From contig QFXC01000011.1 in NCBI GenBank assembly GCA_003349885.1, positions 517,355 through 581,354 on the forward strand: a DNA stretch of 64,000 bases, read 5' to 3'. This document shows, in pieces, positions 8,206 to 61,657 of the stretch. The notes under the pieces were generated by a model. That model ran no database searches. It was not told the DNA's origin and saw only the letters and a program-made list of their open reading frames with translations. Within the stretch, counting starts at the first letter, position 1. Every line of letters begins with the position of its first letter. The position numbers were made by a program, and so were the translations under genes. Origin of the DNA: an endosymbiont of Galathealinum brachiosum (GTDB taxonomy: Bacteria; Pseudomonadota; Gammaproteobacteria; SZUA-229).

Positions 8206-9408
8206 ATGGAAATAACAACTACTATTCTATTATTGGGCTTTGTAGGCGCTCTGGTAATGGGTTTTGTTGCTCATAAAACAAATTACTGCACCATGGGTGG
8301 GGTTTCTGACTGGATTAATATGGGCAATACTGCTCGATTAAGTGCCTGGTTTTTCTCTATCGCTATTGCAGTTTTCGGTGTTCTTTTTCTTCAAAGTTTC
8401 AATGATGTTTCTGTCGAGAGTACTTTGCCGCCTTTTCTAACGGCTAATTTTGCCTGGCTTAGATATATAGTGGGTGGTCTTATGTTTGGTATAGGTATGG
8501 TACTTGCCGGAGGTTGTGGAAATAAGACACTGGTAAATATCGGAGGGGGAAGTCTTCGTTCATTGTTTGTTTTATTGATAGCATCAATAATGGCTTACCT
8601 GATGACTAAAACGTCTTTCTATGAAATGTTCTTTCATAGCTGGGTGAGTGCTACGAGTATTAACCTTGCTGACTTTGAAATTCAGAACCAGTCTATTGAT
8701 CATTTAATTTCTGCTTTAACAGGTATGGAGCCTTCGACAAGTATTCATAATATTGTTGGTGCTTTATTAGGTGCTACTTTTTTATACCTGGCATTACGTT
8801 CTAAGCATTTCAGAAAAAACAGACAGTTAATGGCTGGTGCTGGCATTATTGGTTTAATGATCGTTATGGCCTGGTATGTAACAGGTGGTAGCATGGGGCA
8901 GGAAGCTATTGAAACGGTTGAGTGGCTGGATGAGAGACCAGTTGGTGTTGGTGTTCAGTCGTATACATTTATAAATCCGATGGGTGATACGCTTGCGTAC
9001 CTAATGGATCCCGGCAACTTGCTTTTGATTAGTTTTGGAGTCGTAGCATTACTAGGTGTAATATTAGGTTCATTAATTTATTCATTGATAGCCGGCAAAT
9101 TTCGTATAAGTGCTTTTTCTTCAAAAGAAGATTTTATTAAACACTTAATTGGCGGAATCTTAATGGGAGTTGGTGGTGTATTAGGTATGGGATGTACCAT
9201 TGGGCAGGGTATAACAGGTGTTTCTACTCTGGCTTTTGGATCATTGCTTGTGCTGGGTTCAATTATTTTTTCTGCAGCGCTGACAATTAAGATCACATAT
9301 TACAAAATGGCTTATGAAGAAGAAGCCAGTTTTATCGGGGCATTTATTAGTACGCTGGTAGATTTTAAATGTTTACCTGAGTCAGTTCGAAGGTTAGAAG
9401 AACCTTAA
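8206..9408 (+). CDS. yeeE: YeeE/YedE family inner-membrane protein (thiosulfate/sulfur-compound transporter TsuA-like)
   Basis: Multi-TM protein with the two GGC-type half repeats (LAGGCGNKTLVNIGGG; GMGCTIGQG) typical of YeeE/YedE. Confidence 0.75.
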   Translation: MEITTTILLLGFVGALVMGFVAHKTNYCTMGGVSDWINMGNTARLSAWFFSIAIAVFGVLFLQSFNDVSVESTLPPFLTANFAWLRYIVGGLMFGIGMVLAGGCGNKTLVNIGGGSLRSLFVLLIASIMAYLMTKTSFYEMFFHSWVSATSINLADFEIQNQSIDHLISALTGMEPSTSIHNIVGALLGATFLYLALRSKHFRKNRQLMAGAGIIGLMIVMAWYVTGGSMGQEAIETVEWLDERPVGVGVQSYTFINPMGDTLAYLMDPGNLLLISFGVVALLGVILGSLIYSLIAGKFRISAFSSKEDFIKHLIGGILMGVGGVLGMGCTIGQGITGVSTLAFGSLLVLGSIIFSAALTIKITYYKMAYEEEASFIGAFISTLVDFKCLPESVRRLEEP

Positions 9409-10085: not shown

Positions 10086-10484
10086 TTAAAAAGATAAAAT
10101 AGTATCCTGCTGTTTCATCATTTCTTTTAGTTGATCTGTAGACAGTGCTCTGGGATAAACAGTTTCTTCTGTTTCATCATCTTCACCAACAGAGATGAGT
10201 TGATCTGTAGAAATATTTCTATCTTTAAGTGAATCAGAGTCTACATATACGTTTTTAACATCCCAGTCAGCAAGGGCGCCCAATGATGCGCTGAATCCTT
10301 TAATTCCCAGGTCTTTAGTGTCCTGTCCTTTTTTAACTGAGAAAACACCATCATCAATAAAAACGATAGATAAATCCATTTCAAAAGAAGCCATGATAAA
10401 CATCACCTCTATAGCCTCCTGTACATAAATGGTTCCATGAGGGGCTTTACGTAATGTGATCATAAGTTTGTGAGCATCAGACAT
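10086..10484 (-). CDS. DsrF/TusC family sulfur relay protein (with a C-terminal acidic insertion)
   Basis: Aligns to TusC (RKAPHGT..., VFIDDGVF) and has no active-site Cys, as in TusC/DsrF. It carries a ~13-aa acidic insert (VGEDDETEETVYP) not seen in E. coli TusC. Confidence 0.65.
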   Translation of the reverse strand: MSDAHKLMITLRKAPHGTIYVQEAIEVMFIMASFEMDLSIVFIDDGVFSVKKGQDTKDLGIKGFSASLGALADWDVKNVYVDSDSLKDRNISTDQLISVGEDDETEETVYPRALSTDQLKEMMKQQDTILSF

Positions 10485-10493
10485 TTTTTCTCC

Positions 10494-10850
10494 TTAATCA
10501 CCAAAAGTAACTAATCGGTCAGAGTTTTGTATCATATTCGCCAGCTGGCCTAGCCCAGAAATACGTGTGTTTTCTATTAGAATATCTTCGGTCATTCCTC
10601 TACGCTTTGCAGCTGCAATACAAACTACAATATCAACTCCCTGACTGCCAACTTCTGACCAGCGATTTGAAATGTGCCGGTCATCCTGGGGTGGCTCCAT
10701 CATTTTGGTAACATTGTTTACACCATCATGATAAAAAAATATGCCAGTTATCTCGTGTCCCTTCTTTATAGCAGACTGTACAAATTGATAGGCGCTATCA
10801 GCAGCCTGATGATTGTATGGTCCCTCCTGAATTAAAATGGTTAATTTCAT
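10494..10850 (-). CDS. DsrE/TusD family sulfur relay protein
   Basis: 118 aa with the conserved Cys loop (VDIVVCIAAAKRRG), as in TusD/DsrE. Confidence 0.75.
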   Translation of the reverse strand: MKLTILIQEGPYNHQAADSAYQFVQSAIKKGHEITGIFFYHDGVNNVTKMMEPPQDDRHISNRWSEVGSQGVDIVVCIAAAKRRGMTEDILIENTRISGLGQLANMIQNSDRLVTFGD

Positions 10851-10873
10851 TATAAAACCCCTTAGTTATAAAA

Positions 10874-11212
10874 TTACTGGTACGCTTTGTCGCATCGCGC
10901 AGCCATAATAAAATCGTTAATAAATAAGCCTGACAGGCTATGTGTCCACCAGCTTAAATTTACTGTTCCCCATTCAATACAAATGCAGGGATGGTGGTTC
11001 TCTTCTTCAGCAAGGTCGGTCACCATATTGGCAAATTTCATGGCTGACCTGAAATCTTTAAATTTGTAATTTTTTATTATTTTTTGGCTGTCTTGCTGGT
11101 AATTAAGAGTCCAGCCGTTGAGTTCCCTCAGGTGTTTTTCAATTTCTATTGTAGACAGTGCTAAACTATCTTTGTCGCAAGTTTTTAATGACTGTTCAGT
11201 TAAAGTGATCAT
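10874..11212 (-). CDS. phhB: pterin-4a-carbinolamine dehydratase
   Basis: 112 aa with the PCD signature EEENHHPCICIEWGTVNLSWWTHSLSGLFINDF ([E]xxxHHP...W...H...D). Confidence 0.8.
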   Translation of the reverse strand: MITLTEQSLKTCDKDSLALSTIEIEKHLRELNGWTLNYQQDSQKIIKNYKFKDFRSAMKFANMVTDLAEEENHHPCICIEWGTVNLSWWTHSLSGLFINDFIMAARCDKAYQ

Positions 11213-11319: not shown

Positions 11320-11697
11320 ATGACAATGAAATATATGGCCGAGGTGGAAGAATTTCGTGACAAACTAAAGTCAGGTGGCAAGCCATTTTTATTAAGAAAT
11401 AGACTGCCAGCCGTAAAAGTAGAGCTAGAGTTTGAAGGGCTACTTAATGGTATGCCTGTGGTATGGCACGCCTGCATTAGAACGGTGGAAGATTGTTCGT
11501 TGAATAATCAGGTTTCTGATGATCCAAAGCAATTTATAAAAATTGAAATTATTGACGGTAGACATGAACTTGAAGTTGCTTTAAATCTTAATGTCATTGA
11601 TATGGCTACGCTAGAGCGTACTATAATTATGATTAGAAAATATAAGCGATTACAGCCCGGATGCCATGAATATGGTGCGCGAAGTAAGACAGAATAG
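11320..11697 (+). CDS. hypothetical protein (125 aa)
   Basis: ORF only. Immediately upstream of, and on the same strand as, the ParA-like gene. Confidence 0.3.
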   Translation: MTMKYMAEVEEFRDKLKSGGKPFLLRNRLPAVKVELEFEGLLNGMPVVWHACIRTVEDCSLNNQVSDDPKQFIKIEIIDGRHELEVALNLNVIDMATLERTIIMIRKYKRLQPGCHEYGARSKTE

Positions 11698-11746: not shown

Positions 11747-12409
11747 ATGAAGCGTATAGTTGTAATTAATACTAAAGGTGGGTGTGGTAAGACGACAGTC
11801 TCCACCAATCTGGCGAGCTATTATGCATCTAAAGGATTTAATACCGCATTATTTGATTATGATCCTCAGGGTTCAAGTATGCGCTGGTTGAAGCTTCGGG
11901 AAGGTGATATGTCGGATATATATGGTGTGGTTGCGCATAAAAATTCAGCCAAAGCAGTTACCATGAGCTGGCAATTGCGATTACCGGCAGAAACAGAACG
12001 GGTTATTATAGATACGCCACCGGGATTAAAAGGCCCGGAGCTCAAGGAGCAATTAAAAGGCGCAGATAAAATTCTAATACCTGTTCTACCTTCCCCTCTG
12101 GATATTTTTGCTACAGCTGATTTTATTCGTGATTTGCTGCTTGATGTTAAGGTTCGATTAAATCAGACCAGTATCGGCATTGTGGCAAATCGGGTTAGAA
12201 AAAATACGGTTGCTTTTCAATCTTTAGAGCGTTTTTTAAGTTCATTAAATATACCAGTAGTTGCTAGATTAAGGGATACGCAGAATTATTTACGTGCGAC
12301 TGAAGAGGGTATGGGGATACATGAATTAAAGGGTAAAAATGTGTATCTGGATAGAACGCACTGGAAAGGTATAGTTGAGTGGCTGGACAGGAATGATCAG
12401 AATTTATAA
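11747..12409 (+). CDS. ParA/MinD-family P-loop ATPase (orphan, no parB)
   Basis: Deviant Walker A NTKGGCGKTT at the N-terminus. 220 aa. No ParB-like partner nearby. Confidence 0.75.
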   Translation: MKRIVVINTKGGCGKTTVSTNLASYYASKGFNTALFDYDPQGSSMRWLKLREGDMSDIYGVVAHKNSAKAVTMSWQLRLPAETERVIIDTPPGLKGPELKEQLKGADKILIPVLPSPLDIFATADFIRDLLLDVKVRLNQTSIGIVANRVRKNTVAFQSLERFLSSLNIPVVARLRDTQNYLRATEEGMGIHELKGKNVYLDRTHWKGIVEWLDRNDQNL

Positions 12410-12411
12410 AT

Positions 12412-12442
12412 AAAAAAGCCAGCTTAAAGCTGGCTTTTTTAT
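12412..12442. terminator. bidirectional rho-independent terminator
   Basis: aaaaaagccagcttaaagctggctttttt lies between the convergent ParA-like gene and the PEP-CTERM protein gene. Confidence 0.85.
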
Positions 12443-12450
12443 TATAAATC

Positions 12451-13212
12451 TTATTTCTTTTTTCTTCTGCTTATGAGGCCTAGTCCAGTGATTCCAGACA
12501 GGAGCAGTAAGAAGGCGGGTGGTAATGGAACAGGCGTAACGGGTGGAGATATACTTGTTATAGAAGAATTCAAAGCAGCTGTTAATGATAATGCCATTGG
12601 GCTAGTTGAGTTTGCCTGCAAATCAATAAACAAAGACTCGTTTAGCGTTTCCCCCAGTGAAATATCAAAATCAGATAAATCTATTGAAGCGGCCATTAAC
12701 CGAACATTTGAATAAGTTGAGCCATCCCAGTCAACGCGATTAGCAACCTGTTCTGTGCCTGACGTGCTGAAAACATTGGAGACAGTTAATGCCTGGCTTA
12801 CACCATTTATAGAAACGGTTGCATCATTTTGTGTCTGGTCCCAGATAAAAAAGAAGGCAAGATCATCGCCATTACCATTCAGGGCGAAAGTTTGGCTAAA
12901 GTCTAATTCCAGAGACAGGCTGCCGGCACCTTGCATTGCTGCTAAAGACGTGGACAGGTCAGAATCTGTAGTATCGTTAGGTGTATTGGTGTTAGCCCAG
13001 GCCTGACCAGTGTATGTTAGCCATGAGTTACTATCTCTGTTTCCTGCGTACCAGGATGTGCCGTTGTATGCTGTGCCCTGACCTGAAATGAGTTGATCGG
13101 CAACAGCATTATCTTCAAATGCATATGAGCCAATACTTGCAGCATTAACCTGTGAGCCTGCAGCAAGTGCTGCAAATAACAAAACGGGTTTTAAAATAAC
13201 GTTAATGTTCAT
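12451..13212 (-). CDS. secreted protein with C-terminal PEP-CTERM-type (VPLPA-like) sorting signal
   Basis: N-terminal signal peptide (LLFAALAAGSQVNA), then a ~200-aa Ser/Thr/Asn/Asp-rich domain. The C-terminus TPVPLPPAFLLLLSGITGLGLISRRKKK has the motif - TM helix - basic tail layout of PEP-CTERM sorting domains. Confidence 0.65.
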   Translation of the reverse strand: MNINVILKPVLLFAALAAGSQVNAASIGSYAFEDNAVADQLISGQGTAYNGTSWYAGNRDSNSWLTYTGQAWANTNTPNDTTDSDLSTSLAAMQGAGSLSLELDFSQTFALNGNGDDLAFFFIWDQTQNDATVSINGVSQALTVSNVFSTSGTEQVANRVDWDGSTYSNVRLMAASIDLSDFDISLGETLNESLFIDLQANSTSPMALSLTAALNSSITSISPPVTPVPLPPAFLLLLSGITGLGLISRRKKK

Positions 13213-13261
13213 TTTCTTTACTCTTAATTTTTTTATAATTTAAATTTTCAGTATTGAGGTT

Positions 13262-13585
13262 CTACTGAAAAGGCGCCGGTGGCGGCGGCGGTAGTGTTAC
13301 AGGAGTTGGTGGGGCAGAGATAACGGGCGTAGATGCATCTATATTGCTGAACCCGGCAATAGTGTTAGGTGTCAGTATTGCTTCACGCAGAAATGCCGAA
13401 TTCTCATTTGGGCGGAAGTTAACGTTAGGTGTTTTAGCTGGTGGAGGCGTTACTCTGGCAACAGGGCCAGCAGCAGGTTTAAGTCCCTCAGACCATTTCC
13501 CCCATGTGTATACAGAGTCCTGCTCTATTGCTGATGCATGCATGGGTACAAGTAATGCGATTGCTAATAAATATATTCTTTTCAT
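13262..13585 (-). CDS. secreted proline-rich protein (107 aa from ATG at 13583-13585)
   Basis: Signal peptide MKRIYLLAIALLVPMHASA. The C-terminus is Pro-rich (APPTPVTLPPPPPAPFQ). Contains a PAAG tetrapeptide. Confidence 0.45.
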   Translation of the reverse strand: MKRIYLLAIALLVPMHASAIEQDSVYTWGKWSEGLKPAAGPVARVTPPPAKTPNVNFRPNENSAFLREAILTPNTIAGFSNIDASTPVISAPPTPVTLPPPPPAPFQ

Positions 13586-13947
13586 ATTCTTAAACCTTAT
13601 TGATATAGAAAGAATTAAAAGCAAATACGATGCCGATAAATATAAAACCTAACGTAAACAGTCACTTGTGTTCAATAGAATTGAAATGCATTTAATCCGT
13701 TATTTCTGTGGGCTTCTATCCCAGATTTGGAAGATTATAGTTATCGTAAAATGCCTGTCCATACCCCATTCGAGGGGGCGCTGAGGGATATTTATGTAAC
13801 TAATTGATAATAAAGCGAATGTTTAAGCGTGAAGTTTGTTTTTTTAGATGAGCTGTTAAATTCAAAATGATTTGTACTTGCCTGTATTGTAAATACTACC
13901 GACAATGACTTGATTATAGTGTCGGTAATATTTACAGGGCATGTATA

Positions 13948-15210
13948 TTAGAAGAAATAGCGGCGCATATTTAGCGCATAGGTATCTCTGTCATATTCGG
14001 TTTCTGCTATATTTGAATCATTATTAGTAAATGTATATTGAGCATTTAGTGTCCATGATCTCAATAAGCCTGTGCGGAAATCATGACTCACCCCTAATAC
14101 AACAAGTAATTCTGTTTCATCACGTATTTCAGTAAAGCTATTGGCTGTATCTATGGCTTTATATTTGTAGTCTCGGCTACTGGCAGTTAAATAAGCCAGC
14201 GCATCATCCCAGGCGGGCATCTGTCCACCGAGATAATATTCGGCACCTGTGTAGTGAAGTGTGCCATCAACTGCACCATTATCGTGATACCTGATGCCCC
14301 CCTGAATCCCTATTGACTGGCGTTCAAAGAATTTTGCAAGGTCAATATTCCATGTTGTCATGGTGCCCCTGAGTCCCTGATCTTCCGGCTGATCATATTC
14401 CCGAATTGATGTTTTGTTTTCGAAAGTGATTTCAAGGTCTTTTGTGATGCTGTAGGTCGCTAAAGGATTAATGCCTATATATTGGGCATAGTCTTCCTTG
14501 CCAAATATGAGCTTGTCAATTTTAAAATTCAAAGCAGCACGCCATTTTTCTTCAGCTATTAGTGCAGGACCGGTGTTTAAGGTTAATACAGATAAATTGA
14601 AGTCAGTATCATCTGAGCCATAAACTCTGCTGAAAGCCGTTGCCTGAGTATGCCATTCAAAATCAACTATGGAGCCGCCCATGTGTAAGGCCTGACTCGC
14701 TCTTGAGCGGTGTGAATAAGTGAACATGAACTGGCCACCACTACCACTTTGCTCGAGTGTTTCTGGTGTGACGCCGGTTATATCTTTGCCAGGGCCCAGA
14801 TTGATATTTGAATCAGTAAACATACCAGCAGAAATATACATGGAAGAGGTAGATCGTTGAGCAGCTGTTTTTATATCACCTGATAATTGAGCTAAATAAG
14901 CGGTTATAGATAATTTAACTTCATCAGGTGTTTCCGGGTCATTTAAAACAGTGGTTAATTCATCTTTTGCATCTTGATAACGACGTGTCAGGTGATAAGA
15001 GATGGCGAGTTCCAGACGCGCACGATTAAGGCCTGGCTGATTACTTAAAATAGTTTCAAATATTTCAATGGATTTGAATAACTCACCATCCTGACGATAA
15101 CGCATCGCTTCGTTAAATAAAGTCTCCGGATCTACGGCTTCTTCAGCGTAGACAGGTGGTGCGAGAAGCGCTGTAGATAAACAGGCTGATACCAGAATTC
15201 TCCTGATCAT
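13948..15210 (-). CDS. outer-membrane protein: N-terminal TPR-like domain + C-terminal beta-barrel (Slam/DUF560-like architecture)
   Basis: Signal peptide (LLAPPVYAEE). The helical TPR-like N-terminal ~110 aa is followed by alternating amphipathic beta-strand sequence ending in ...RRYFF (C-terminal Phe OMP signature). Confidence 0.5.
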   Translation of the reverse strand: MIRRILVSACLSTALLAPPVYAEEAVDPETLFNEAMRYRQDGELFKSIEIFETILSNQPGLNRARLELAISYHLTRRYQDAKDELTTVLNDPETPDEVKLSITAYLAQLSGDIKTAAQRSTSSMYISAGMFTDSNINLGPGKDITGVTPETLEQSGSGGQFMFTYSHRSRASQALHMGGSIVDFEWHTQATAFSRVYGSDDTDFNLSVLTLNTGPALIAEEKWRAALNFKIDKLIFGKEDYAQYIGINPLATYSITKDLEITFENKTSIREYDQPEDQGLRGTMTTWNIDLAKFFERQSIGIQGGIRYHDNGAVDGTLHYTGAEYYLGGQMPAWDDALAYLTASSRDYKYKAIDTANSFTEIRDETELLVVLGVSHDFRTGLLRSWTLNAQYTFTNNDSNIAETEYDRDTYALNMRRYFF

Positions 15211-15478
15211 TTAAATATCCTCAATACAATAAGTAATTTTTCGTGATATTGACGTTTTTTAGGTGTTTTTACAAGGAAAACCGTGATTCTTATCCCATAT
15301 GGGGGGGTGTACTAATTAAGTGTGGGCAGATGAATCAGGTGGTATATACATGAAAAATTGATATTAAAGCCCGTCGCTAGCTATAAGCTATTTTTAAAAG
15401 CGTCCTTAGGCTATTATATTTAACGGTAATTAGCTTAAGCAGGTATGAGTTGTTGATCTACGTAAAGAAGGCGCAAGT

Positions 15479-16114
15479 TTGAGGCAAAAAAGTAAATATT
15501 TACTACATTTTTTGAGTTTGTTGTTTGTTGTGATTCCAGATATTGCTTTGGCAGGGCTTTTTGGATATCAGGAAAATGAACGTGAAAATTTAAAGATGTT
15601 TCCTCAATGGTTATCTGTCTTAGAACGAAATATCAAAGAAAGTGCGCCAGAGGGTAATTGTGAAAGTAGTCGGCTGGATAGTTGTCATGTGAAAAACTGG
15701 TTAAGTTTTCTGAAAAGCATTCGGCATCTTTCAAAAATGCAGCAGATAAATAAGGTTAATCTTTATGCCAATGAGCATGACTATATTTTAGATATAGAAA
15801 ATTACGGTGTTAAAGATTACTGGGCGACTCCCAGAGAGTTTTTATACAATAATGGTGACTGTGAAGATTATGCAATAACTAAAATGCTCTCATTAAAAAT
15901 GTTAGGTTTTAATATGAAGGGTATTAGGTTGGTAGTATTGCAGGATACAAACTTGAGAACACCTCATGCTGTTTTAGCATTGCACACTAAAAATGATATT
16001 TTGATAATGGATAATCAGGTGGATGAGGTTGTGTCACATAAACATATTGTACATTATGTGCCGGTTTATGCAGTGAATGAAAATAAGTGGTGGATGTTTT
16101 TGCCGCAACAATAA
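15479..16114 (+). CDS. periplasmic transglutaminase-like cysteine proteinase (BTLCP / Peptidase C93, LapG-like)
   Basis: TTG start with a GAAGG RBS. Signal peptide, then a candidate C-H-D triad in the conserved context (NNGDCEDYAITK ... TPHAVLALH ... IMDNQ). Confidence 0.65.
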   Translation: MRQKSKYLLHFLSLLFVVIPDIALAGLFGYQENERENLKMFPQWLSVLERNIKESAPEGNCESSRLDSCHVKNWLSFLKSIRHLSKMQQINKVNLYANEHDYILDIENYGVKDYWATPREFLYNNGDCEDYAITKMLSLKMLGFNMKGIRLVVLQDTNLRTPHAVLALHTKNDILIMDNQVDEVVSHKHIVHYVPVYAVNENKWWMFLPQQ

Positions 16115-16165: not shown

Positions 16166-18187
16166 ATGAAAGATAAAAGAACTTCAAAAAAAACAAATTC
16201 CCCTCCCTTGCTGGCAAGTATTTTTCTGGTGTTTTTTGTCGCGATAAGTTTGTGGTTGATTTTTGAGTATGCAGAAAAAGAGAGAAGTCGTGATTTAATA
16301 AACTGGAAAACCCGATTAGCTTTACTGGCTGAGATACGCGCGGCGGCTGTTGAAGACTGGATTGGATTGAGGAAAATCCAGTTGAATAAACTGGCGGAAA
16401 ATGCCAGTTTAAGATTATATCTTTCGGCATATAATAATCGTGATGAAGTTGATAAAAATGTATTGGGCGCTGAGCAGGGGCACGTAAGAAACTTATTACG
16501 AGCAAGCGCGGATCGTTTTGGCTTTGCAGAAAATATAAGCGCGATAAATAAAAATAATTCAAGTGATTATGGACTAGCGATTTTAGATGCAAATCGCCAG
16601 CTTGTTATGTCTACAAAAGGTTTTCCAGATAATGTTGATATACATAGCGGTGTTATAGATAAAGTATATTCGACAGCAAAGTCGCTGATAATAGATTTAT
16701 ATGCGGGGGAAAATAAACAACCGGTTTATGGTTACATAATACCTGTATTTCAGATTCAGGATCTTGAAGCAGTGAATCCTGTTGGCGCAGTTATGCTGTT
16801 GCTGGATCCACAAAAGAATCTATTTTCTATATTAAAAAACAAACAAAGTGTAACGATTTCTGATGAAACATTGCTTGTTAAAAGAGATGGACCAAGCCTT
16901 GTTTTCTTAAGTCCGGTGAAAGGCGAGTTTAAACTGTTTTATCGTCTTCCTGATAATAACAATCAGTTAGCCGCATCTTATGCGTATCATAACCCGGGTG
17001 GTTTTAAAGAAATCAAGGATTATAGAGGAAATGACGTACTGGTGACGGGTCGTAAAATCAAGAATAGCCCCTGGGGGTTAGTGCAGAAAATTTCTTCTTC
17101 TGAAGCGTTAGCTGAATCGAACAAACATCAGGAGTTTTTAATAACAACATTTATATTGTTTGTGATTGGAGTCGCAGCCGCGTTTGTTGCAATCTGGCGT
17201 CACAGTACCAGTTTGCGTTTACAGTCTTTGAGTGATGAGCTTGAAGTTAGAACAGTTTTGCTAGATGCTGTTACGGATAATATAAAAGATAATATTCTTT
17301 TACTGGATCATGATTCAAAAATTATTTTTATAAATATTGCATTTGCAAAAGCCTTGTCGCTGGATGTTGATGAAATAAGATCAAAGCACATAACCAGTGT
17401 GCTTGGAAAGGAAACGGCAGAATCATTAGTTAATAGTTCATGTGAAGATAGTAAAGCATGTGTTATGGCGTTACAGATAGAGGCCAGTGAGCGTGTATAC
17501 CATGTGTCATCTACTCGGCTGGAGTCGGGTGCGCATCAAAGTGCAACTTTATATGTATTGCACGATATAAGCGAGTTAAAGCAGGAGCAGGAAAAACGTG
17601 AACAACTGGGGCAAGGGATTATTCAAACTTTAGTTAAAGCGGTAGATTTGCATGATCCGTTTTGTATCAATCATTCTGAGCGTACGCGTGATGTTGCAGT
17701 AGAAATAGCTAAAGAAATGGATTTAACTAATATTCAGTTAGAGTCTCTTGAAATGGCGTCTTTACTTGCCAATATAGGTAAGTTATTCGTGCCGAAGGAG
17801 ATCCTGATTAAAATGGAAGCATTGTCAGATGATGAGTCTAAACAATTGAAAAAGCATATTGAGTATGCTGTTGATATATTGTCAGGGCTTTCGTTTAATG
17901 GACCTGTTGTTGATATAATTTCACAGAAAAATGAACGACTTGATGGCAGTGGGTATCCTAAAGGTATAACAGGTAATGATATTATGCTTGAATCACGAAT
18001 CCTGGCTGTAGCAAATGCATTCGTCGCAATGGCTAGTTCGCGAGCGTATCGAGAAGGCCGTGATGTAAAAGAAGTAATGAATATCCTTCTAGAACAGTCT
18101 GAATCATTATATGACCGTCATGTTGTTGCTGCTTTATTTCATATATCAGAGAATAAAGCAGACTGGAAAACGTGGCAGAGTATATAA
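16166..18187 (+). CDS. membrane sensor: periplasmic Cache-like domain - TM - PAS - HD-GYP c-di-GMP phosphodiesterase
   Basis: TM helices at ~residues 15-37 and ~321-343, bracketing a ~285-aa Cache-like periplasmic domain. A PAS-like region follows, then HD-GYP motifs (DLHDPFCINHSERTRD ...NIGKLFVP... ERLDGSGYPKGI). Confidence 0.7.
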   Translation: MKDKRTSKKTNSPPLLASIFLVFFVAISLWLIFEYAEKERSRDLINWKTRLALLAEIRAAAVEDWIGLRKIQLNKLAENASLRLYLSAYNNRDEVDKNVLGAEQGHVRNLLRASADRFGFAENISAINKNNSSDYGLAILDANRQLVMSTKGFPDNVDIHSGVIDKVYSTAKSLIIDLYAGENKQPVYGYIIPVFQIQDLEAVNPVGAVMLLLDPQKNLFSILKNKQSVTISDETLLVKRDGPSLVFLSPVKGEFKLFYRLPDNNNQLAASYAYHNPGGFKEIKDYRGNDVLVTGRKIKNSPWGLVQKISSSEALAESNKHQEFLITTFILFVIGVAAAFVAIWRHSTSLRLQSLSDELEVRTVLLDAVTDNIKDNILLLDHDSKIIFINIAFAKALSLDVDEIRSKHITSVLGKETAESLVNSSCEDSKACVMALQIEASERVYHVSSTRLESGAHQSATLYVLHDISELKQEQEKREQLGQGIIQTLVKAVDLHDPFCINHSERTRDVAVEIAKEMDLTNIQLESLEMASLLANIGKLFVPKEILIKMEALSDDESKQLKKHIEYAVDILSGLSFNGPVVDIISQKNERLDGSGYPKGITGNDIMLESRILAVANAFVAMASSRAYREGRDVKEVMNILLEQSESLYDRHVVAALFHISENKADWKTWQSI

Positions 18188-18308: not shown

Positions 18309-20513
18309 ATGTATGAATCTTTTTATGGGCTTACGGAAAAGCCATTTACATTATTACCTGATCCGGACTATTTATATCTGAGTCCTAAACATCAACGGGC
18401 GTTGACGCTTCTTGAATATGGCATGATGAATCAGGCTGGCTTTAGCGTAATCTGTGGTGATACAGGGGCTGGTAAAACAACCCTGATTCGACGTCTCTTG
18501 ACTGAATTGGGTGATGACACCAAAGTCGGTCTTATAAATAATACCCATCACTCATTTGGTGAATTGCTTAACTGGGTTTTGATGGCATTTGGCATTGATG
18601 GTGACGGCAAGAGCAAAGCCCAGATGCACCAGATGTTCATCGACTTTCTGATTGAACAGTATGCTCAGAATAAACACACAGTTTTGATAGTTGATGAAGC
18701 GCAGAACATGAAGGCCGATACATTAGAAGAACTGCGCATGTTGTCGAATATTAATTCAGATAAAGATCAGGTGTTACAGGTTATTCTGGCGGGGCAACCT
18801 GCACTGCGTGAAACTTTACGCCAGCCTGAGTTAATGCAGTTTGCGCAGCGTATAGCCGTAGATTATTACCTTGAATCACTGAGTGTTGAGGAAACAAATG
18901 CTTATATTCATCACCGACTAAAGGTTGCGGGCACTGAAAATACGATTTTCACGGATGCCGCCTGTGAAGCAATATTTAAATACAGTGGTGGGACACCGCG
19001 ACTAATTAACCTTCTTTGTGATACAGCACTTGTATATGGTTTTGCTGAGCAAAGCGAAGAAATAAGCGAACAATTAGTACATGACGTAGTGCGCGAGCAA
19101 CATAGCAATAGCATTATACCTACGTTTAACACGGATCATTCTGGTTCGGTTTCCAATCCAGCTAAGAATAGCCCGGATCCTGCCCCATTAGTTGATGTGC
19201 CGATTACACAAAGTGATCAGAAAATAAGTGAGCAGAGTGCTGCTTATGAAAAAACAGAAAAAAAGGTCGTAGTTGCTGAGCCACCAGTTAACGAAGAAGA
19301 TAGAGCAGAGAAATCAGCTGAATTACTTCAGCAAGCCAGTCAACAGACAGCCAGTGTGGTCGGTAGTGCTGAGTCGACAGCTCCAGTTTCTCATACAGAG
19401 TCTTTGTCTGGTATAGAAAAGGCACAGATTAGAAATACGGCTAATGACACTTCAAAAGATGAATCTAATGTAACACCGATAAAGGCTGTGCTGTCTGAAG
19501 CGGAAGAAGTAATTGAAGAGTTAGATGCGGCTGAATTAGAGGATGATACAGATCAGCAAGTTGCGTCTGACGTTAAAGAGCCTGAGCAGGCGAGATCAGA
19601 TGAGACGTTTAAAGAGCCAGTTGATCAGGATCAGGAAAGCGGGTCTGGTGAAAGCTCACCAGAAGATATCCTTAGCCATAATGCCCCTGAAATGGGAAGG
19701 CGAAAAGAGGATGTTGAAGAAATAGCACCATATATGTCACGTAGAAAGCGTGATAACGAAGATGACGATGTTTATCCGATTGTGCATATAGAAGAGAATC
19801 CGAATAAGGGATTCAATATGGTAGTGATTGGCGTTGTTGGGGGAATGTTTGTTGCTTCCATTATAATGATGATAGCTGCCTGGACGATGTTTGGATCAAA
19901 AGATAATATTGATCAACAGGCTGTACAGAAAAACTTAAATCAGCAATTACAGTTAGAGGATGAAAGTCGTGAGCTTAAAGCATTGCAAAAAGAGCGTGAT
20001 GCAGCTTTAGCCGTAACACGCGCGCTTGAAAGAGAGCGTGATGCAGCGATAACTGCAGCAAAAGCACAGGAAGAAATTCGTGCAGCCGAGTTACGTGCAG
20101 CCGAGATATTAGCTGAGCAGCAACGTAGAGCGGATAAGAAATTACAGCAGGCTAGAGCCCGAATAAGAGAGGCTGAACTAGCTGAGTCTAAGGCACTGGC
20201 ACGAGAACATGAAATGCAGCTAGCAGCTGAAAGAAAAGAGTCTGAGTTAGAAAATGAGCGTCTTAGGCTGCTTCGTAAAGAACGGATAAGATTAGAAGCT
20301 CTTGCAGTTGATGAAGAAATGGCCGCAATACGTTTGAAAGAAAAACAAAGCCTTATAGAAGAGTCAGAAGTAGTTGATGAAGTAGTTGATGAAGTAGCGG
20401 ATGAAGTAGCGGATGAAGATAAAGTCCAGACAAAACCCGAAGAAGCTAAGAGTTTTTCATCAAATCCATGTAATAGTCCTTCAGCAAAATTTTTGTCTAC
20501 CTGTAAAAAGTAA
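18309..20513 (+). CDS. ExeA/GspA-family AAA ATPase fused to acidic linker, TM helix and TolA-like periplasmic coiled coil
   Basis: N-terminal FYGLTEKPFTLLPDPDYLYLSPKHQRALTLLEYGMMNQAGFSVICGDTGAGKTTLIRRLL (ExeA/MshM-type Walker A) with Walker B LIVDEAQN. A long acidic low-complexity region is followed by a TM helix (VVIGVVGGMFVASIIMMIAAW), an Ala/Glu/Arg-rich coiled coil and a VDEV tandem repeat. Confidence 0.65.
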   Translation: MYESFYGLTEKPFTLLPDPDYLYLSPKHQRALTLLEYGMMNQAGFSVICGDTGAGKTTLIRRLLTELGDDTKVGLINNTHHSFGELLNWVLMAFGIDGDGKSKAQMHQMFIDFLIEQYAQNKHTVLIVDEAQNMKADTLEELRMLSNINSDKDQVLQVILAGQPALRETLRQPELMQFAQRIAVDYYLESLSVEETNAYIHHRLKVAGTENTIFTDAACEAIFKYSGGTPRLINLLCDTALVYGFAEQSEEISEQLVHDVVREQHSNSIIPTFNTDHSGSVSNPAKNSPDPAPLVDVPITQSDQKISEQSAAYEKTEKKVVVAEPPVNEEDRAEKSAELLQQASQQTASVVGSAESTAPVSHTESLSGIEKAQIRNTANDTSKDESNVTPIKAVLSEAEEVIEELDAAELEDDTDQQVASDVKEPEQARSDETFKEPVDQDQESGSGESSPEDILSHNAPEMGRRKEDVEEIAPYMSRRKRDNEDDDVYPIVHIEENPNKGFNMVVIGVVGGMFVASIIMMIAAWTMFGSKDNIDQQAVQKNLNQQLQLEDESRELKALQKERDAALAVTRALERERDAAITAAKAQEEIRAAELRAAEILAEQQRRADKKLQQARARIREAELAESKALAREHEMQLAAERKESELENERLRLLRKERIRLEALAVDEEMAAIRLKEKQSLIEESEVVDEVVDEVADEVADEDKVQTKPEEAKSFSSNPCNSPSAKFLSTCKK
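20372..20419 (+). repeat. 4 x 12-bp tandem repeat (gtagttgatgaa / gtagcggatgaa) inside the ExeA-like CDS
   Basis: Direct tandem copies encoding (V[VA]DE)x4. A slippage-prone in-frame repeat. Confidence 0.7.
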
Positions 20514-59932: not shown

Positions 59933-61657
59933 TTATATTTTTGAGCTGGACAGCTGAAAGCAGACATTAGACGGTTCATTATGAATCAGTTGTAATTGAT
60001 ACCCATTTCTTTCAGCTAGTTGTGCAGACTGATATAGACCAATTCCATATCCATCTTTAGATGGCAATATTTGTTTAAATAATACGTTTGTTTTTGAGAC
60101 GGGGACAGGGTCACCATCATCATAGACCGTTATAACTGGTTGGCCTTTTTCAAGTTTGATGGTGGTAGTAATTTCAGTTTCTGGTCTTGTGCGGCGTTTG
60201 TTTCTGGCGTTTTCAAGCAGATTTTCAAGAACAGTATCAAAGACATCAGTATCGATAGAGGTATTTTGATCTGTTTCTCCAACAAACTGAATATCACGTC
60301 CATGATATCGGCTTTGAAGTTCTGTCCACCAGACATCCATTTGTTTGAAGCTTTTACCAGTGTCAGTTTTAGTCTGTAATTTATCAAGTGTGTTTTGTAA
60401 ACGTTGAGATAATATAGGTAGTTGTTTGCTAATAAGTTGATGGCTTTCAGCCGGATCATCTGCGGCATGCACAACACCAGTTAATGCCTGTAGAGACTGT
60501 AAAATGTTTTTAATATCGTGTGTTAGTTTTGATCCGGTTTCATAAACCGCTTTTAAATGTGTCTGGTTTTTAAGCGTTATTTCACGTAATTTTGAATTAT
60601 AAAAATAACTCATTAAATGCATAAGTAATTGCGCATGAATTTTTAAAGCTGAGCCCATAGGAATATGGCTATATAGAATCATCCTGATTCCATTATCTTC
60701 AAATAATGTTTGTTGTGCACTTACCTCACCGTAAAGGTTCTCGCTTTTATTGTCTGACCATTTAACGCCGCTTACCCAGGAGAGAGTTAATAATTGTTTA
60801 ATGCTATTTTCGAGATATAAATCAGGTGTTATTTTTTTATTCTGCCCCAGCAATGATGTATGTTTAACCCAGTTTTCAAATGGATTGCCGATATTTAAAA
60901 TGTGTTGTTCCCATATTTGTCCTATGCCGGCAAGACCATGTCTGGGTAACCATATAAGACTCAGAATAATAAAGAAAACACCAATGGATAATGCCGTAAT
61001 TAGTAATGACTGGAGATAGTGAATGTTTGAAGTAAAGCTAATTAATATGCTGGTGACATAAAAGCTAAATAACCCAAAACTGATTAAAATACTGTGTAGG
61101 TAATCAATTTTGACAGAACGAACTTTTTTACAAGGCCATAAAATAAGTAAAGCACAGGCAAACAATAAAACATAAAAAATAATTTGTTCGAGTTCATGAT
61201 CAAGTACATTTAAATGAAATAAGCGAGGTGTCAGTATAAGGCTAAGTTGTAGAAATAAAATTACAGCTGAAAGCGCATATAGGGTTCGTTGAAAGCCATT
61301 AACAAGAGCGCTTCCGCTAGTTAAGCCAATTAATAAAATGATCCATAGCGCGATAAACCAGTCACCGAGAAGCAAATACAGCGCTATGTTTAGGAGTAAA
61401 ACAGGTATTAATGTCTTTAGGTGTATTTCTTCAGTCGCATTTAAGGCGGGTTGCCAGAGTAGAAAAAAACCAATGTGTGCGAGTAGAAGTGCTGAAACAA
61501 GAGGGCTGTTTTCCGTTGGTTGGTGTAATGCCAGGTGTAGCAATAACAGCATTAACCCAAGGTTAATAAACTCAAACCGGGTGCTGGTGGTGACTCTGTA
61601 AATATTAGGTTTATTAAACATATATTGTTGAAACATTGTCATTTGTTGATATTTCAA
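59933..61657 (-). CDS. multi-TM sensor histidine kinase (PilS-like architecture)
   Basis: ~7-8 N-terminal TM helices, a cytoplasmic linker, H-box THDIKNILQSLQALTG and HATPase_c (DDGDPVP...DGYGIGLYQSAQLAERNGYQL). No cognate response regulator is adjacent other than glnG. Confidence 0.65.
   Translation of the reverse strand: MKYQQMTMFQQYMFNKPNIYRVTTSTRFEFINLGLMLLLLHLALHQPTENSPLVSALLLAHIGFFLLWQPALNATEEIHLKTLIPVLLLNIALYLLLGDWFIALWIILLIGLTSGSALVNGFQRTLYALSAVILFLQLSLILTPRLFHLNVLDHELEQIIFYVLLFACALLILWPCKKVRSVKIDYLHSILISFGLFSFYVTSILISFTSNIHYLQSLLITALSIGVFFIILSLIWLPRHGLAGIGQIWEQHILNIGNPFENWVKHTSLLGQNKKITPDLYLENSIKQLLTLSWVSGVKWSDNKSENLYGEVSAQQTLFEDNGIRMILYSHIPMGSALKIHAQLLMHLMSYFYNSKLREITLKNQTHLKAVYETGSKLTHDIKNILQSLQALTGVVHAADDPAESHQLISKQLPILSQRLQNTLDKLQTKTDTGKSFKQMDVWWTELQSRYHGRDIQFVGETDQNTSIDTDVFDTVLENLLENARNKRRTRPETEITTTIKLEKGQPVITVYDDGDPVPVSKTNVLFKQILPSKDGYGIGLYQSAQLAERNGYQLQLIHNEPSNVCFQLSSSKI

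Follow-up and report, generated by a model that had tools for sequence, protein, structure and literature searches.

The gene at positions 12451 to 13212 (minus strand) of a 64,000-nucleotide stretch of contig QFXC01000011.1, from the endosymbiont of the tubeworm Galathealinum brachiosum (the whole stretch is called the window below), encodes an exported protein with a sorting tail of the PEP-CTERM type. This gene belongs to a cassette of five. The genes for an outer-membrane protein (OMP), a small protein with the motif PAAG and the tail-bearing protein form one operon, and those for a BTLCP protease and an HD-GYP protein, the putative receptor of cyclic di-GMP (c-di-GMP), are divergent from it. 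The first-pass annotation identified the tail correctly but missed the membership in a cassette; the gene is not free-standing and is the terminal gene of a conserved group. We put at about even the chance that the protein is a dedicated part of a five-gene system for surface display and release, and not a free-standing exopolysaccharide-associated protein. On the best reading, a release switch of the Lap/Dvh type would have been joined to an outer-membrane channel of a third kind, and the tail-bearing protein would be a sorted or anchored partner. The sorting tail is a correct but ordinary observation. It is the context of the cassette that would be new, and for this the comparative-genomic evidence is strong and purely computational, resting on sequence comparison, comparative genomics and predicted structures.

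The same five genes were found around every relative that could be placed on a contig (six loci, reached through either the tail protein or the OMP). For instance, locus L007 carries an OMP 37% identical to that of the window, yet its flanks consist of MoxR/DUF58/TgpA genes and not of pyruvate kinase and ParA; the small gene is also present there, uncalled in the annotation. A wider survey with an OMP profile yielded 80 loci from species genomes, which were searched at the level of open reading frames (ORFs) with phmmer and jackhmmer. The hosts are Gammaproteobacteria and Betaproteobacteria, the cultured ones being Sulfuricella sp. T08, Aquabacterium soli, Marinobacterium jannaschii and Amphritea sp. 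HPY, while Azonexus and Dechloromonas are represented by metagenome-assembled genomes (MAGs). The BTLCP gene lies about 2.0–2.2 kb upstream of the OMP gene in 70 of the 80 loci, and the HD-GYP gene about 4.1 kb upstream in 60. The flanking genes are rarer, with an ExeA-like ATPase in 17 loci, pyruvate kinase in 14 and ParA in 14. These three, the ATPase lying at 18309-20513 in the window, had been candidates for membership and were rejected as mere synteny confined to the closest 14–17 loci.

In about 40 related gammaproteobacterial loci, some of them differently flanked, the tail-protein gene occupies the third place of the operon. The tail protein follows the type of its PAAG neighbor, accompanying 33 of the 39 short PAAG proteins and none of the 10 long cargos that end in a TbpB_B_D (TbpBBD) domain. 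Several of the six loci with a short PAAG protein and no tail protein are fragmented genes. Among distant relatives, the VPVP-tailed protein of L090 is again preceded by a small PAAG protein, and the VPEP-tailed protein of L089 is not. Two further arrangements were observed. At L006 (12890-21239), the tail-protein gene is followed by a gene for a 504-residue secreted protein resembling dockerin/TSP3 proteins and then by one for a protein of more than 2300 residues with RHS/YD repeats and a transglutaminase core. At L059, L084, L086 and L088 (Aquabacterium, Burkholderiales), the OMP gene is followed by a PAAG-TbpBBD cargo gene with no BTLCP or HD-GYP gene within the fetched flanks; the protease may be encoded elsewhere in these genomes, or another reader of the motif may act.

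Within the window, the tail-protein gene starts 49 bp past the end of the small PAAG gene. The hairpin AAAAAAGCCAGCTTAAAGCTGGCTTTTTT (12409..12450), which resembles a bidirectional intrinsic terminator, closes both the operon and a convergent parA-like gene. A long gap separates the OMP gene from the small gene, with 362 bp here (13586-13947) and 300–730 bp in relatives. It contains a sigma-70-like promoter candidate, TGGACA-16-TATAAT (13734..13761, minus strand), that matches the consensus at 11 of 12 positions; six sites of this kind were found in the region versus 9.6 expected from shuffled sequences, and the candidate is not significant alone. The small gene and the tail gene may thus be transcribed from a promoter of their own. 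A riboswitch in the gap, which is conserved at 320–700 nt, for example one for c-di-GMP, was considered and rejected: Rfam returned for 12300-15600 no riboswitch and solely sub-threshold matches of the terminator type, at 12381-12526.

The ORF of the tail protein occupies exactly 12451-13212, as had been claimed, and runs from ATG to stop over 253 residues. Its product is identical in sequence to RDH82773.1 (DIZ80_10885) from the MAG of the endosymbiont (QFXC00000000, 3.77 Mb, 38.9% G+C, with 38.8% G+C in the window), and UniRef already gives this protein the name 'PEP-CTERM protein-sorting domain-containing protein'. The protein reads as a Sec-exported beta-sandwich followed by a linker and a VPLPA/PEP-CTERM tail. 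By inspection, a Sec signal peptide is apparent at the N-terminus, MNINVILKPVLLFAALAAGSQVNA followed by AS (…AAGSQVNA, then AS), with a basic n-region, a hydrophobic core and the site VNA/AS, and it is kept in all relatives. The mature region is rich in Asn, Thr, Ser and Asp as described (41.8% together), and it has no Cys, no His and only three Lys and Arg. The C-terminal 28 residues are those quoted by the first-pass annotation, TPVPLPPAFLLLLSGITGLGLISRRKKK, and the tripartite layout stands at the extreme C-terminus, VPLPP-AFLLLLSGITGLGLIS-RRKKK. The assignment to the VPLP(A) form also holds. The VPLPA-CTERM model TIGR03370 aligns over its full length (positions 1-25 of 25, E 7e-5, 22.7 bits), just short of its curated cutoff of 25.35 in this protein, and it is matched by 10 of 10 close relatives at E≤0.01 (best 1.6e-9). 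The PEP-CTERM model PF07589 gives 13.4 bits with a cutoff of 20.7. Among the window's ORFs of at least 50 residues, this is the sole one with a PEP-CTERM-like tail.

Across 39 distinct relatives, the tail is the best-conserved part of the protein (VPlP....LF.SGL..LG...Rrk). A profile search over 1.84 billion representatives retrieved 1550 relatives, and 140 of the 149 best matches have a tail composed of PxP, a transmembrane (TM) segment and basic residues (VPLP in 40, VPVP in 30, VPEP in 12, and others). Canonical VPEP tails are carried by more distant homologues of the mature domain. Such 'suffix swapping' of VPLP, VPVP and VPEP among homologues is typical of true sorting signals, and the spread of canonical PEP-CTERM and VPLPA-type tails over one domain family is what a real sorting signal would be expected to show. 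Judged by its sequence, the protein is a genuine member of the PEP-CTERM class with a tail of the VPLPA type. Many tails of the family read VP[LV]PAA(A/V/I)W; that of the window is VPLPPAF, without AA. The AlphaFold2 (AF2) model, of moderate confidence (pLDDT 66.6), has a jelly-roll beta-sandwich resembling carbohydrate-binding modules, and a helix at 232-252 after a disordered linker. A conserved 'AA[ST]I' at the N-terminus was examined as a possible protease site and rejected, as it lies at the predicted signal-peptidase site, has no Gly and is missing in L006.

The second gene of the operon (13262..13585, minus strand) encodes a small Pro-rich secreted protein of 107 residues, starting with an ATG at 13585 that is preceded by AAGG. 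No Pfam or NCBIfam family matches it. After the signal peptide it reads DSVYTWGKWSEGLK-PAAG, so that K-PAAG-P falls at residues 36-39 with about 17 residues before the site. Directly downstream of the OMP gene in about 65 loci lies a gene for a protein with a single conserved block, D-S-V-x-x-W-G-x-W-x5-[P/T/A]-A-A-G. The last four positions are nearly invariant among 67 distinct homologues (P 60, T 4 and A 3 at the first; A 64; A 60; G 63), and where the first is not P, it is T or A. Experiments have established [T/A/P]AAG as the scissile motif of LapG and DvhG, and cleavage is blocked by a di-Arg substitution (PMC13090378). The small protein thus carries the cleavage consensus of the neighboring module, and it is predicted to be the substrate of the neighboring BTLCP protease.

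Outside this block, the Pro-rich C-termini of the small proteins are variable, often ending in Gly-rich sequence and an aromatic residue (13262-13585 of the window, L006, L007, L010, L014, L018 and L082). Examples are …STGGF, …DTGGF, …ADGLF, …PPGSF, …GDRF and …APFQ, and the Gly-rich and aromatic ends are reminiscent of a C-terminal recognition signal. Two gammaproteobacterial loci, L022 (9567-10325) and L036 (2999-3973), encode a PAAG protein with a signal of the lipoprotein type (…MGC) and an N-terminal extension of about 150 residues before NSV(F/L)GWGDW…PAAG, the tail protein still being next. A lipid-anchored N-terminus in these proteins fits retention of the part before PAAG.

The first gene of the operon (13948..15210, minus strand) encodes a Slam-like OMP of 420 residues, related to the type XI secretion system (T11SS), with a signal peptide, a TPR region and a beta-barrel ending in F. 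The window's protein matches TPR_Slam (E 1.2e-6) and SlipAM (DUF560; E 0.0087), both below the Pfam cutoff. Within the family, TPR_Slam is matched by 25 of 25 aligned homologues and SlipAM/DUF560 by 8 of the 25 (best 1.5e-10). The AF2 model (pLDDT 86) has helices over residues 28-117, comprising two TPR pairs and a long helix, followed by 14 strands. Foldseek matched it to 14-strand OmpG (TM-score 0.68-0.70) and to the TPR-barrel exporters BcsC and PelBC; the PDB has no Slam structure for comparison. The cargo genes of the Betaproteobacteria bear further on this assignment. Their PAAG proteins are 400–480 residues long with a TbpB_B_D domain at the end, which in two of them scores above the Pfam cutoff (33.3 and 27.0 bits versus 26), and TbpB_B_D is the hallmark of type XI (Slam) cargo (PMC8406197). 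By the matches to TPR_Slam and SlipAM together with the TbpB_B_D cargo, the OMP family is thus T11SS-like, and its cargo bears an N-terminal site of the LapG type. The betaproteobacterial cassettes keep the protease and have no tail protein. Tandem PAAG-TbpBBD cargo genes follow the OMP gene at L074 (9497-10786 and 10985-12361) and also at L060, L071, L075 and L076 (Azonexus and relatives). We also considered whether the tail protein could be the TbpBBD or handle domain of a betaproteobacterial cargo in detached form, and rejected this: hhalign gave a probability of 5%, over the signal peptide only, and the fold is a jelly-roll and not an 8-strand barrel.

The regulatory half of the cassette is, from its sequences, a module of the DvhD/DvhG type. 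Divergently from the OMP operon, a predicted periplasmic BTLCP cysteine protease resembling LapG and DvhG is encoded at 15479..16114 (plus strand; Peptidase_C93, E 5.4e-19). Its N-terminus is hydrophobic. The NCBIfam LapG model matches with E 5.8e-22 and 78 bits, the equivalog cutoff being 320, and the best PDB matches are LapG of P. fluorescens (4U65_E, 2.7e-17) and LapG of L. pneumophila (4FGO). Its segments GDCEDYA, HAVL and IMDN align to the Cys, His and Asp positions of LapG, and GDCED[YF], which holds the DCED motif of the calcium site, is present in 69 of 70 BTLCP homologues of the cassettes. The gene at 16166..18187 (plus strand) encodes a DvhD-like inner-membrane protein, the putative c-di-GMP receptor, arranged as TM, periplasmic dCache, TM, PAS and a degenerate HD-GYP domain (HD_5, 1.5e-43; dCache_1; PAS_9). 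Its closest solved relatives are DvhD 9RC0 (1.8e-38, residues 363-665) and 9RBZ. The metal ligands are lost, with AN for HD and KN for HH, and GYP is retained; among the homologues in the cassettes, 50 of 58 have AN, and KN, KS or KQ is found in 51 of 58. Similarly, SQ and MN stand in DvhD in place of HD and HH, and DvhD binds c-di-GMP and does not hydrolyse it.

A working model can be proposed from these parts. Sec would carry all three products of the operon across the inner membrane. The pore of the OMP would be engaged by the small protein or, in the betaproteobacterial clade, by the TbpB-barrel cargo with the same N-terminal module, and a short handle at the N-terminus of the PAAG protein, DSVxxWGxW, would keep this protein associated with the cell from the periplasmic side. 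The binding site of the handle could plausibly be the TPR domain of the OMP or the tail protein. At high c-di-GMP the receptor would hold the protease in check. When c-di-GMP falls, the protease would cut between the two alanines of PAAG and the distal part would be released, as in the Lap and Dvh systems. The tail protein, found only where the PAAG protein is short, would be a second, co-evolving partner, and its beta-sandwich, as modelled, may be the functional moiety, adhesive or binding. It would first be held in the inner membrane by its VPLP-TM-RRKKK tail; release from this anchor, most likely by an enzyme of the exosortase class encoded elsewhere, would allow its display with or through the OMP.

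A more novel form of the proposal can be stated only tentatively, and we think it possible rather than probable. It is that of a so far undescribed class of c-di-GMP-gated surface display, in which a DvhD/DvhG switch, analogous to LapD/LapG, would act on the cargo of a type-XI-like pore through a portable N-terminal handle of about 20 residues, DSVxxWGxW-x5-PAAG. The gammaproteobacterial cargo, that of the tubeworm symbiont included, would be split into a Pro-rich tether and a PEP-CTERM-type tail protein. The tail would work without a classical exosortase: it would either anchor a trans-envelope tether permanently in the inner membrane or be acted on by a sorting enzyme of an unrecognised kind.

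Several observations weigh against the cassette as a system of display and release. The PAAG module stands without the retention domain, targeting helix and DP turn known from Lap and Dvh substrates, and a handle of 20 residues is too small to plug a pore alone. Domain scans found no TbpBBD barrel in the small protein or the tail protein of the window. The contrast between short and long PAAG proteins follows the phylogenetic split of Gamma- and Betaproteobacteria, and its occurrences are not independent events. The window's own tail, OMP and protease score under the curated cutoffs of their closest models, and cleavage, localisation and c-di-GMP binding in the cassette are inferred from sequence. 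Motif inspection, as distinct from a hidden Markov model search, found no exosortase within 8–10 kb of about 45 loci with a homologue of the tail protein, and the 1.09 Mb of the relatives' flanks, a local sample, yielded no additional tail of the PEP-CTERM kind. Sparse tails with no exosortase nearby fit poorly to a classical exosortase system with many targets.

Inspection of ORFs by predicted TM segments and domain scans bore out that no exosortase, an 8-TM enzyme of the EpsH/Xrt family, is encoded in the 64-kb window. There, four or more TM segments are predicted for an ABC-2 permease, an ammonium transporter, a TsuA/YeeE-like transporter, a histidine kinase and a further ORF that is spurious and runs antisense to pyruvate kinase, and for no other ORF. 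Across the 1.09 Mb of relatives' loci, ORFs with at least six TM segments resemble, by their motifs on inspection, Na+/H+ antiporters, major facilitator superfamily transporters, PntB, ABC permeases and NrfD-like proteins. The first-pass annotation had concluded from the one window that the processing enzyme must be elsewhere or of an unrecognised type. This argument is weak. PEP-CTERM genes are usually dispersed single-gene operons that share the one or two exosortases of their genome (PMC1569441, PMC3237569), and because they are normally scattered, absence from 64 kb is uninformative. They are usually far from the exosortase and typically have large upstream regions, and a genome has several paralogous tails, with a median of about 8 (PMC1569441). 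Dedicated sorting enzymes with a single target, on the other hand, tend to adjoin it (PMC3237569). The strong conservation of the tail motif and the exchange of VPEP and VPLP among homologues argue for an exosortase. The paper describing the MAG (PMC6194059) makes no mention of exosortase, PEP-CTERM, Slam or transglutaminase. PrsK was considered as the identity of the histidine kinase at 59933-61657 and rejected, since its kinase domain alone matches (45 bits versus a cutoff of 300).

It is conceivable, if unlikely, that the tail protein belongs with the ordinary PEP-CTERM/VPLPA-CTERM proteins of the dispersed kind and is processed by a canonical exosortase (XrtA- or XrtD-like) encoded elsewhere in the 3.77-Mb genome, with neighbors that are merely syntenic. 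The protein would then join the extracellular matrix once the exosortase has removed the tail. The match of the VPLPA-CTERM model across the tail family agrees with this, as do the UniRef name, the distant homologues with canonical VPEP tails, at least one of which stands alone, and the usual distance of such genes from their exosortase (PMC1569441). Some 5 kb from the tail-protein gene, moreover, the N-terminal 264 residues of a 734-residue protein (18309-20513, plus strand), the ExeA-like ATPase named above, match TIGR03015, 'XrtA/PEP-CTERM system-associated ATPase', over the full length of the model and near its threshold (302.9 bits versus a cutoff of 324.5). The remaining C-terminal extension of about 470 residues has no domain match. 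This ATPase could be a hint of PEP-CTERM-system genes in the lineage, or an ExeA/GspA-like paralogue. Mere synteny is, however, difficult to reconcile with the adjacency of the tail protein to the PAAG and OMP genes in 33 of 39 loci, which include L007 and the 'VPLPLP' clade without the synteny of pyruvate kinase, ExeA and ParA. The spacing of 49 bp also contrasts with the typical single-gene operon with its large upstream region, and neither the window nor the flanks of relatives hold more such tails.

Alternatively, and with as little probability in our estimate, the tail may never be cleaved and may serve, with no exosortase involved, as a permanent inner-membrane anchor. The periplasmic beta-sandwich would grip the DSVxxWGxW handle of the small protein, and the anchor, the Pro-rich protein and the OMP pore would make up a trans-envelope tether that the BTLCP protease severs at PAAG. 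This would account for the finding that the tail protein occurs only beside short PAAG proteins, which have almost no sequence before the motif, and that the betaproteobacterial cargos and the lipoprotein forms of L022 and L036 bring an N-terminal extension or lipid anchor of their own. The lack of an exosortase near the roughly 45 loci, where a dedicated enzyme with a single target would usually be adjacent (PMC3237569), and the lack of other PEP-CTERM-like tails nearby are also in favor of it. Nevertheless, the VPxP and SGL..LG pattern is conserved beyond the needs of a plain TM anchor, and the interchange with true VPEP tails argues for recognition by a sortase-like partner.

Processing of the tail by an enzyme that the cassette itself encodes and that is no exosortase is highly improbable. 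The transglutaminase-like BTLCP, for instance, would act on VPLP(A)(A), either as a protease or as a transpeptidase that sorts. In favor of this, the common tail form VP[LV]PAA(A/V/I)W contains P-A-A like the protease consensus, the BTLCP fold is capable in principle of transamidation (PMC4241560) and the protease is the sole conserved hydrolase of the cassette. Against it, AA is missing from the tail of the window and from the large VPLPLP clade, versus the near-invariant PAAG of the small protein. The motif of the tail also lies right at the periplasmic face of the membrane and lacks the consensus Gly, and the betaproteobacterial cassettes retain the protease without any tail protein.

The other large ORFs scanned in the window are housekeeping genes. 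An orphan ATPase resembling ParA and MinD is encoded at 11747-12409 (plus strand), preceded by a gene for a 125-residue protein without a family match (11320-11697, plus strand). The pair is syntenic in close relatives, and it converges on the tail-protein gene with a common bidirectional terminator. Beyond them, 10086-11212 and 8206-9408 encode DsrE/DsrF-like proteins and a thiosulfate transporter of the TsuA/YeeE type, with matches below cutoffs, and a gene for pterin-4a-carbinolamine dehydratase is also found here. This apparent context of sulfur metabolism is typical of a thiotrophic symbiont.

Proteolytic release of the LapG type is the best-understood coupling of c-di-GMP to bacterial surface attachment, and every case known so far concerns a giant adhesin in a channel of type I (TolC-like) or type Vb. 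With the cassette, this logic would extend to a third channel family (Slam/type XI) and to cargos that are small or of the TbpB-barrel type and can be told by a short and easily recognised N-terminal module. For type XI secretion it suggests a means by which cargo is retained and released. For PEP-CTERM biology it provides a tail-bearing protein with a fixed functional context, which could help to find out to what such tails are attached, or whether their cleavage is universal. The cassette occurs widely among uncultured Gammaproteobacteria that oxidise sulfur, one of them an animal symbiont; in a horizontally acquired symbiont, a surface protein switched by c-di-GMP is a plausible colonisation factor. 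As the cassette also occurs in cultured Beta- and Gammaproteobacteria, the proposal is directly testable. In the openly accessible literature, we found no T11SS described in connection with a BTLCP protease, with a c-di-GMP receptor or with a PEP-CTERM-type protein, nor the combination of DUF560/T11SS with LapG/BTLCP. The survey of T11SS (PMC8406197) makes no mention of c-di-GMP, HD-GYP or PEP-CTERM, and the neighborhood data of the DvhDG paper do not include the genera found here.

When compared with known systems, the tail protein resembles the PEP-CTERM and VPLPA-CTERM proteins (TIGR02595, TIGR03370) in its tripartite tail, its signal peptide and its Ser/Thr/Asn-rich mature region with little homology. 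It differs from them in its sub-threshold score, in not forming a single-gene operon, in being embedded in a cassette that is not one for exopolysaccharide, and in being the bearer of the one tail in 64 kb, with none further in the relatives' flanks.

The regulatory half is closest to the Dvh system of Desulfovibrio vulgaris (PMC13090378, PMC10990149). Both have adjacent genes for a BTLCP protease and its receptor, a receptor of the dCache-PAS-HD-GYP type in which the HD and HH ligands are lost and GYP is kept (DvhD being the closest solved relative), and a [T/A/P]AAG site in a neighboring secreted protein. The Dvh operon, however, comprises a type I secretion system (T1SS) and RTX-type adhesins of giant size that have a retention domain at the N-terminus, whereas the cassette of the window has neither a T1SS nor a giant adhesin, and its channel candidate is the T11SS-like barrel. 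Its PAAG protein has only 107 residues, about 17 of which precede the site, and a tail-anchored third protein is added.

With the Lap system (LapA/LapE/LapG/LapD of Pseudomonas fluorescens and CdrA/CdrB-LapG of P. aeruginosa) the cassette shares a periplasmic protease, here by prediction, that is gated by an inner-membrane receptor of c-di-GMP and cuts at a dialanine. There, the cut surface protein slips out of its outer-membrane channel, and LapG is the closest solved protease to the BTLCP of the cassette. The Lap module is already known with two channel types, the TolC-like channel of T1SS and the TpsB channel of type Vb (T5b). No T1SS or TpsB gene and no large adhesin substrate were found in the cassette, and the receptor is of the DvhD type and not a LapD with GGDEF and EAL domains. 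The channel would be a third type, Slam/DUF560-like, with a substrate that is tiny or, in the betaproteobacterial clade, of the TbpB-barrel type. Having neither a giant adhesin nor a T1SS or T5b channel, the cassette is therefore not filed as a Lap or a Dvh system.

The channel finds its counterpart in T11SS/Slam (PMC8406197). The OMP of the window is a distant member below the Pfam cutoffs, and the two proteins encoded downstream of it are without TbpBBD, which sets this cassette apart from the described systems. It nevertheless shares with them an N-terminal TPR region followed by a 14-strand barrel and a cargo gene immediately downstream, and the betaproteobacterial cassettes come closer still, as their cargo has, in the manner of the 'TbpBBDsol' class, a Sec signal of the SPI type and just one TbpB_B_D domain, at the C-terminus.

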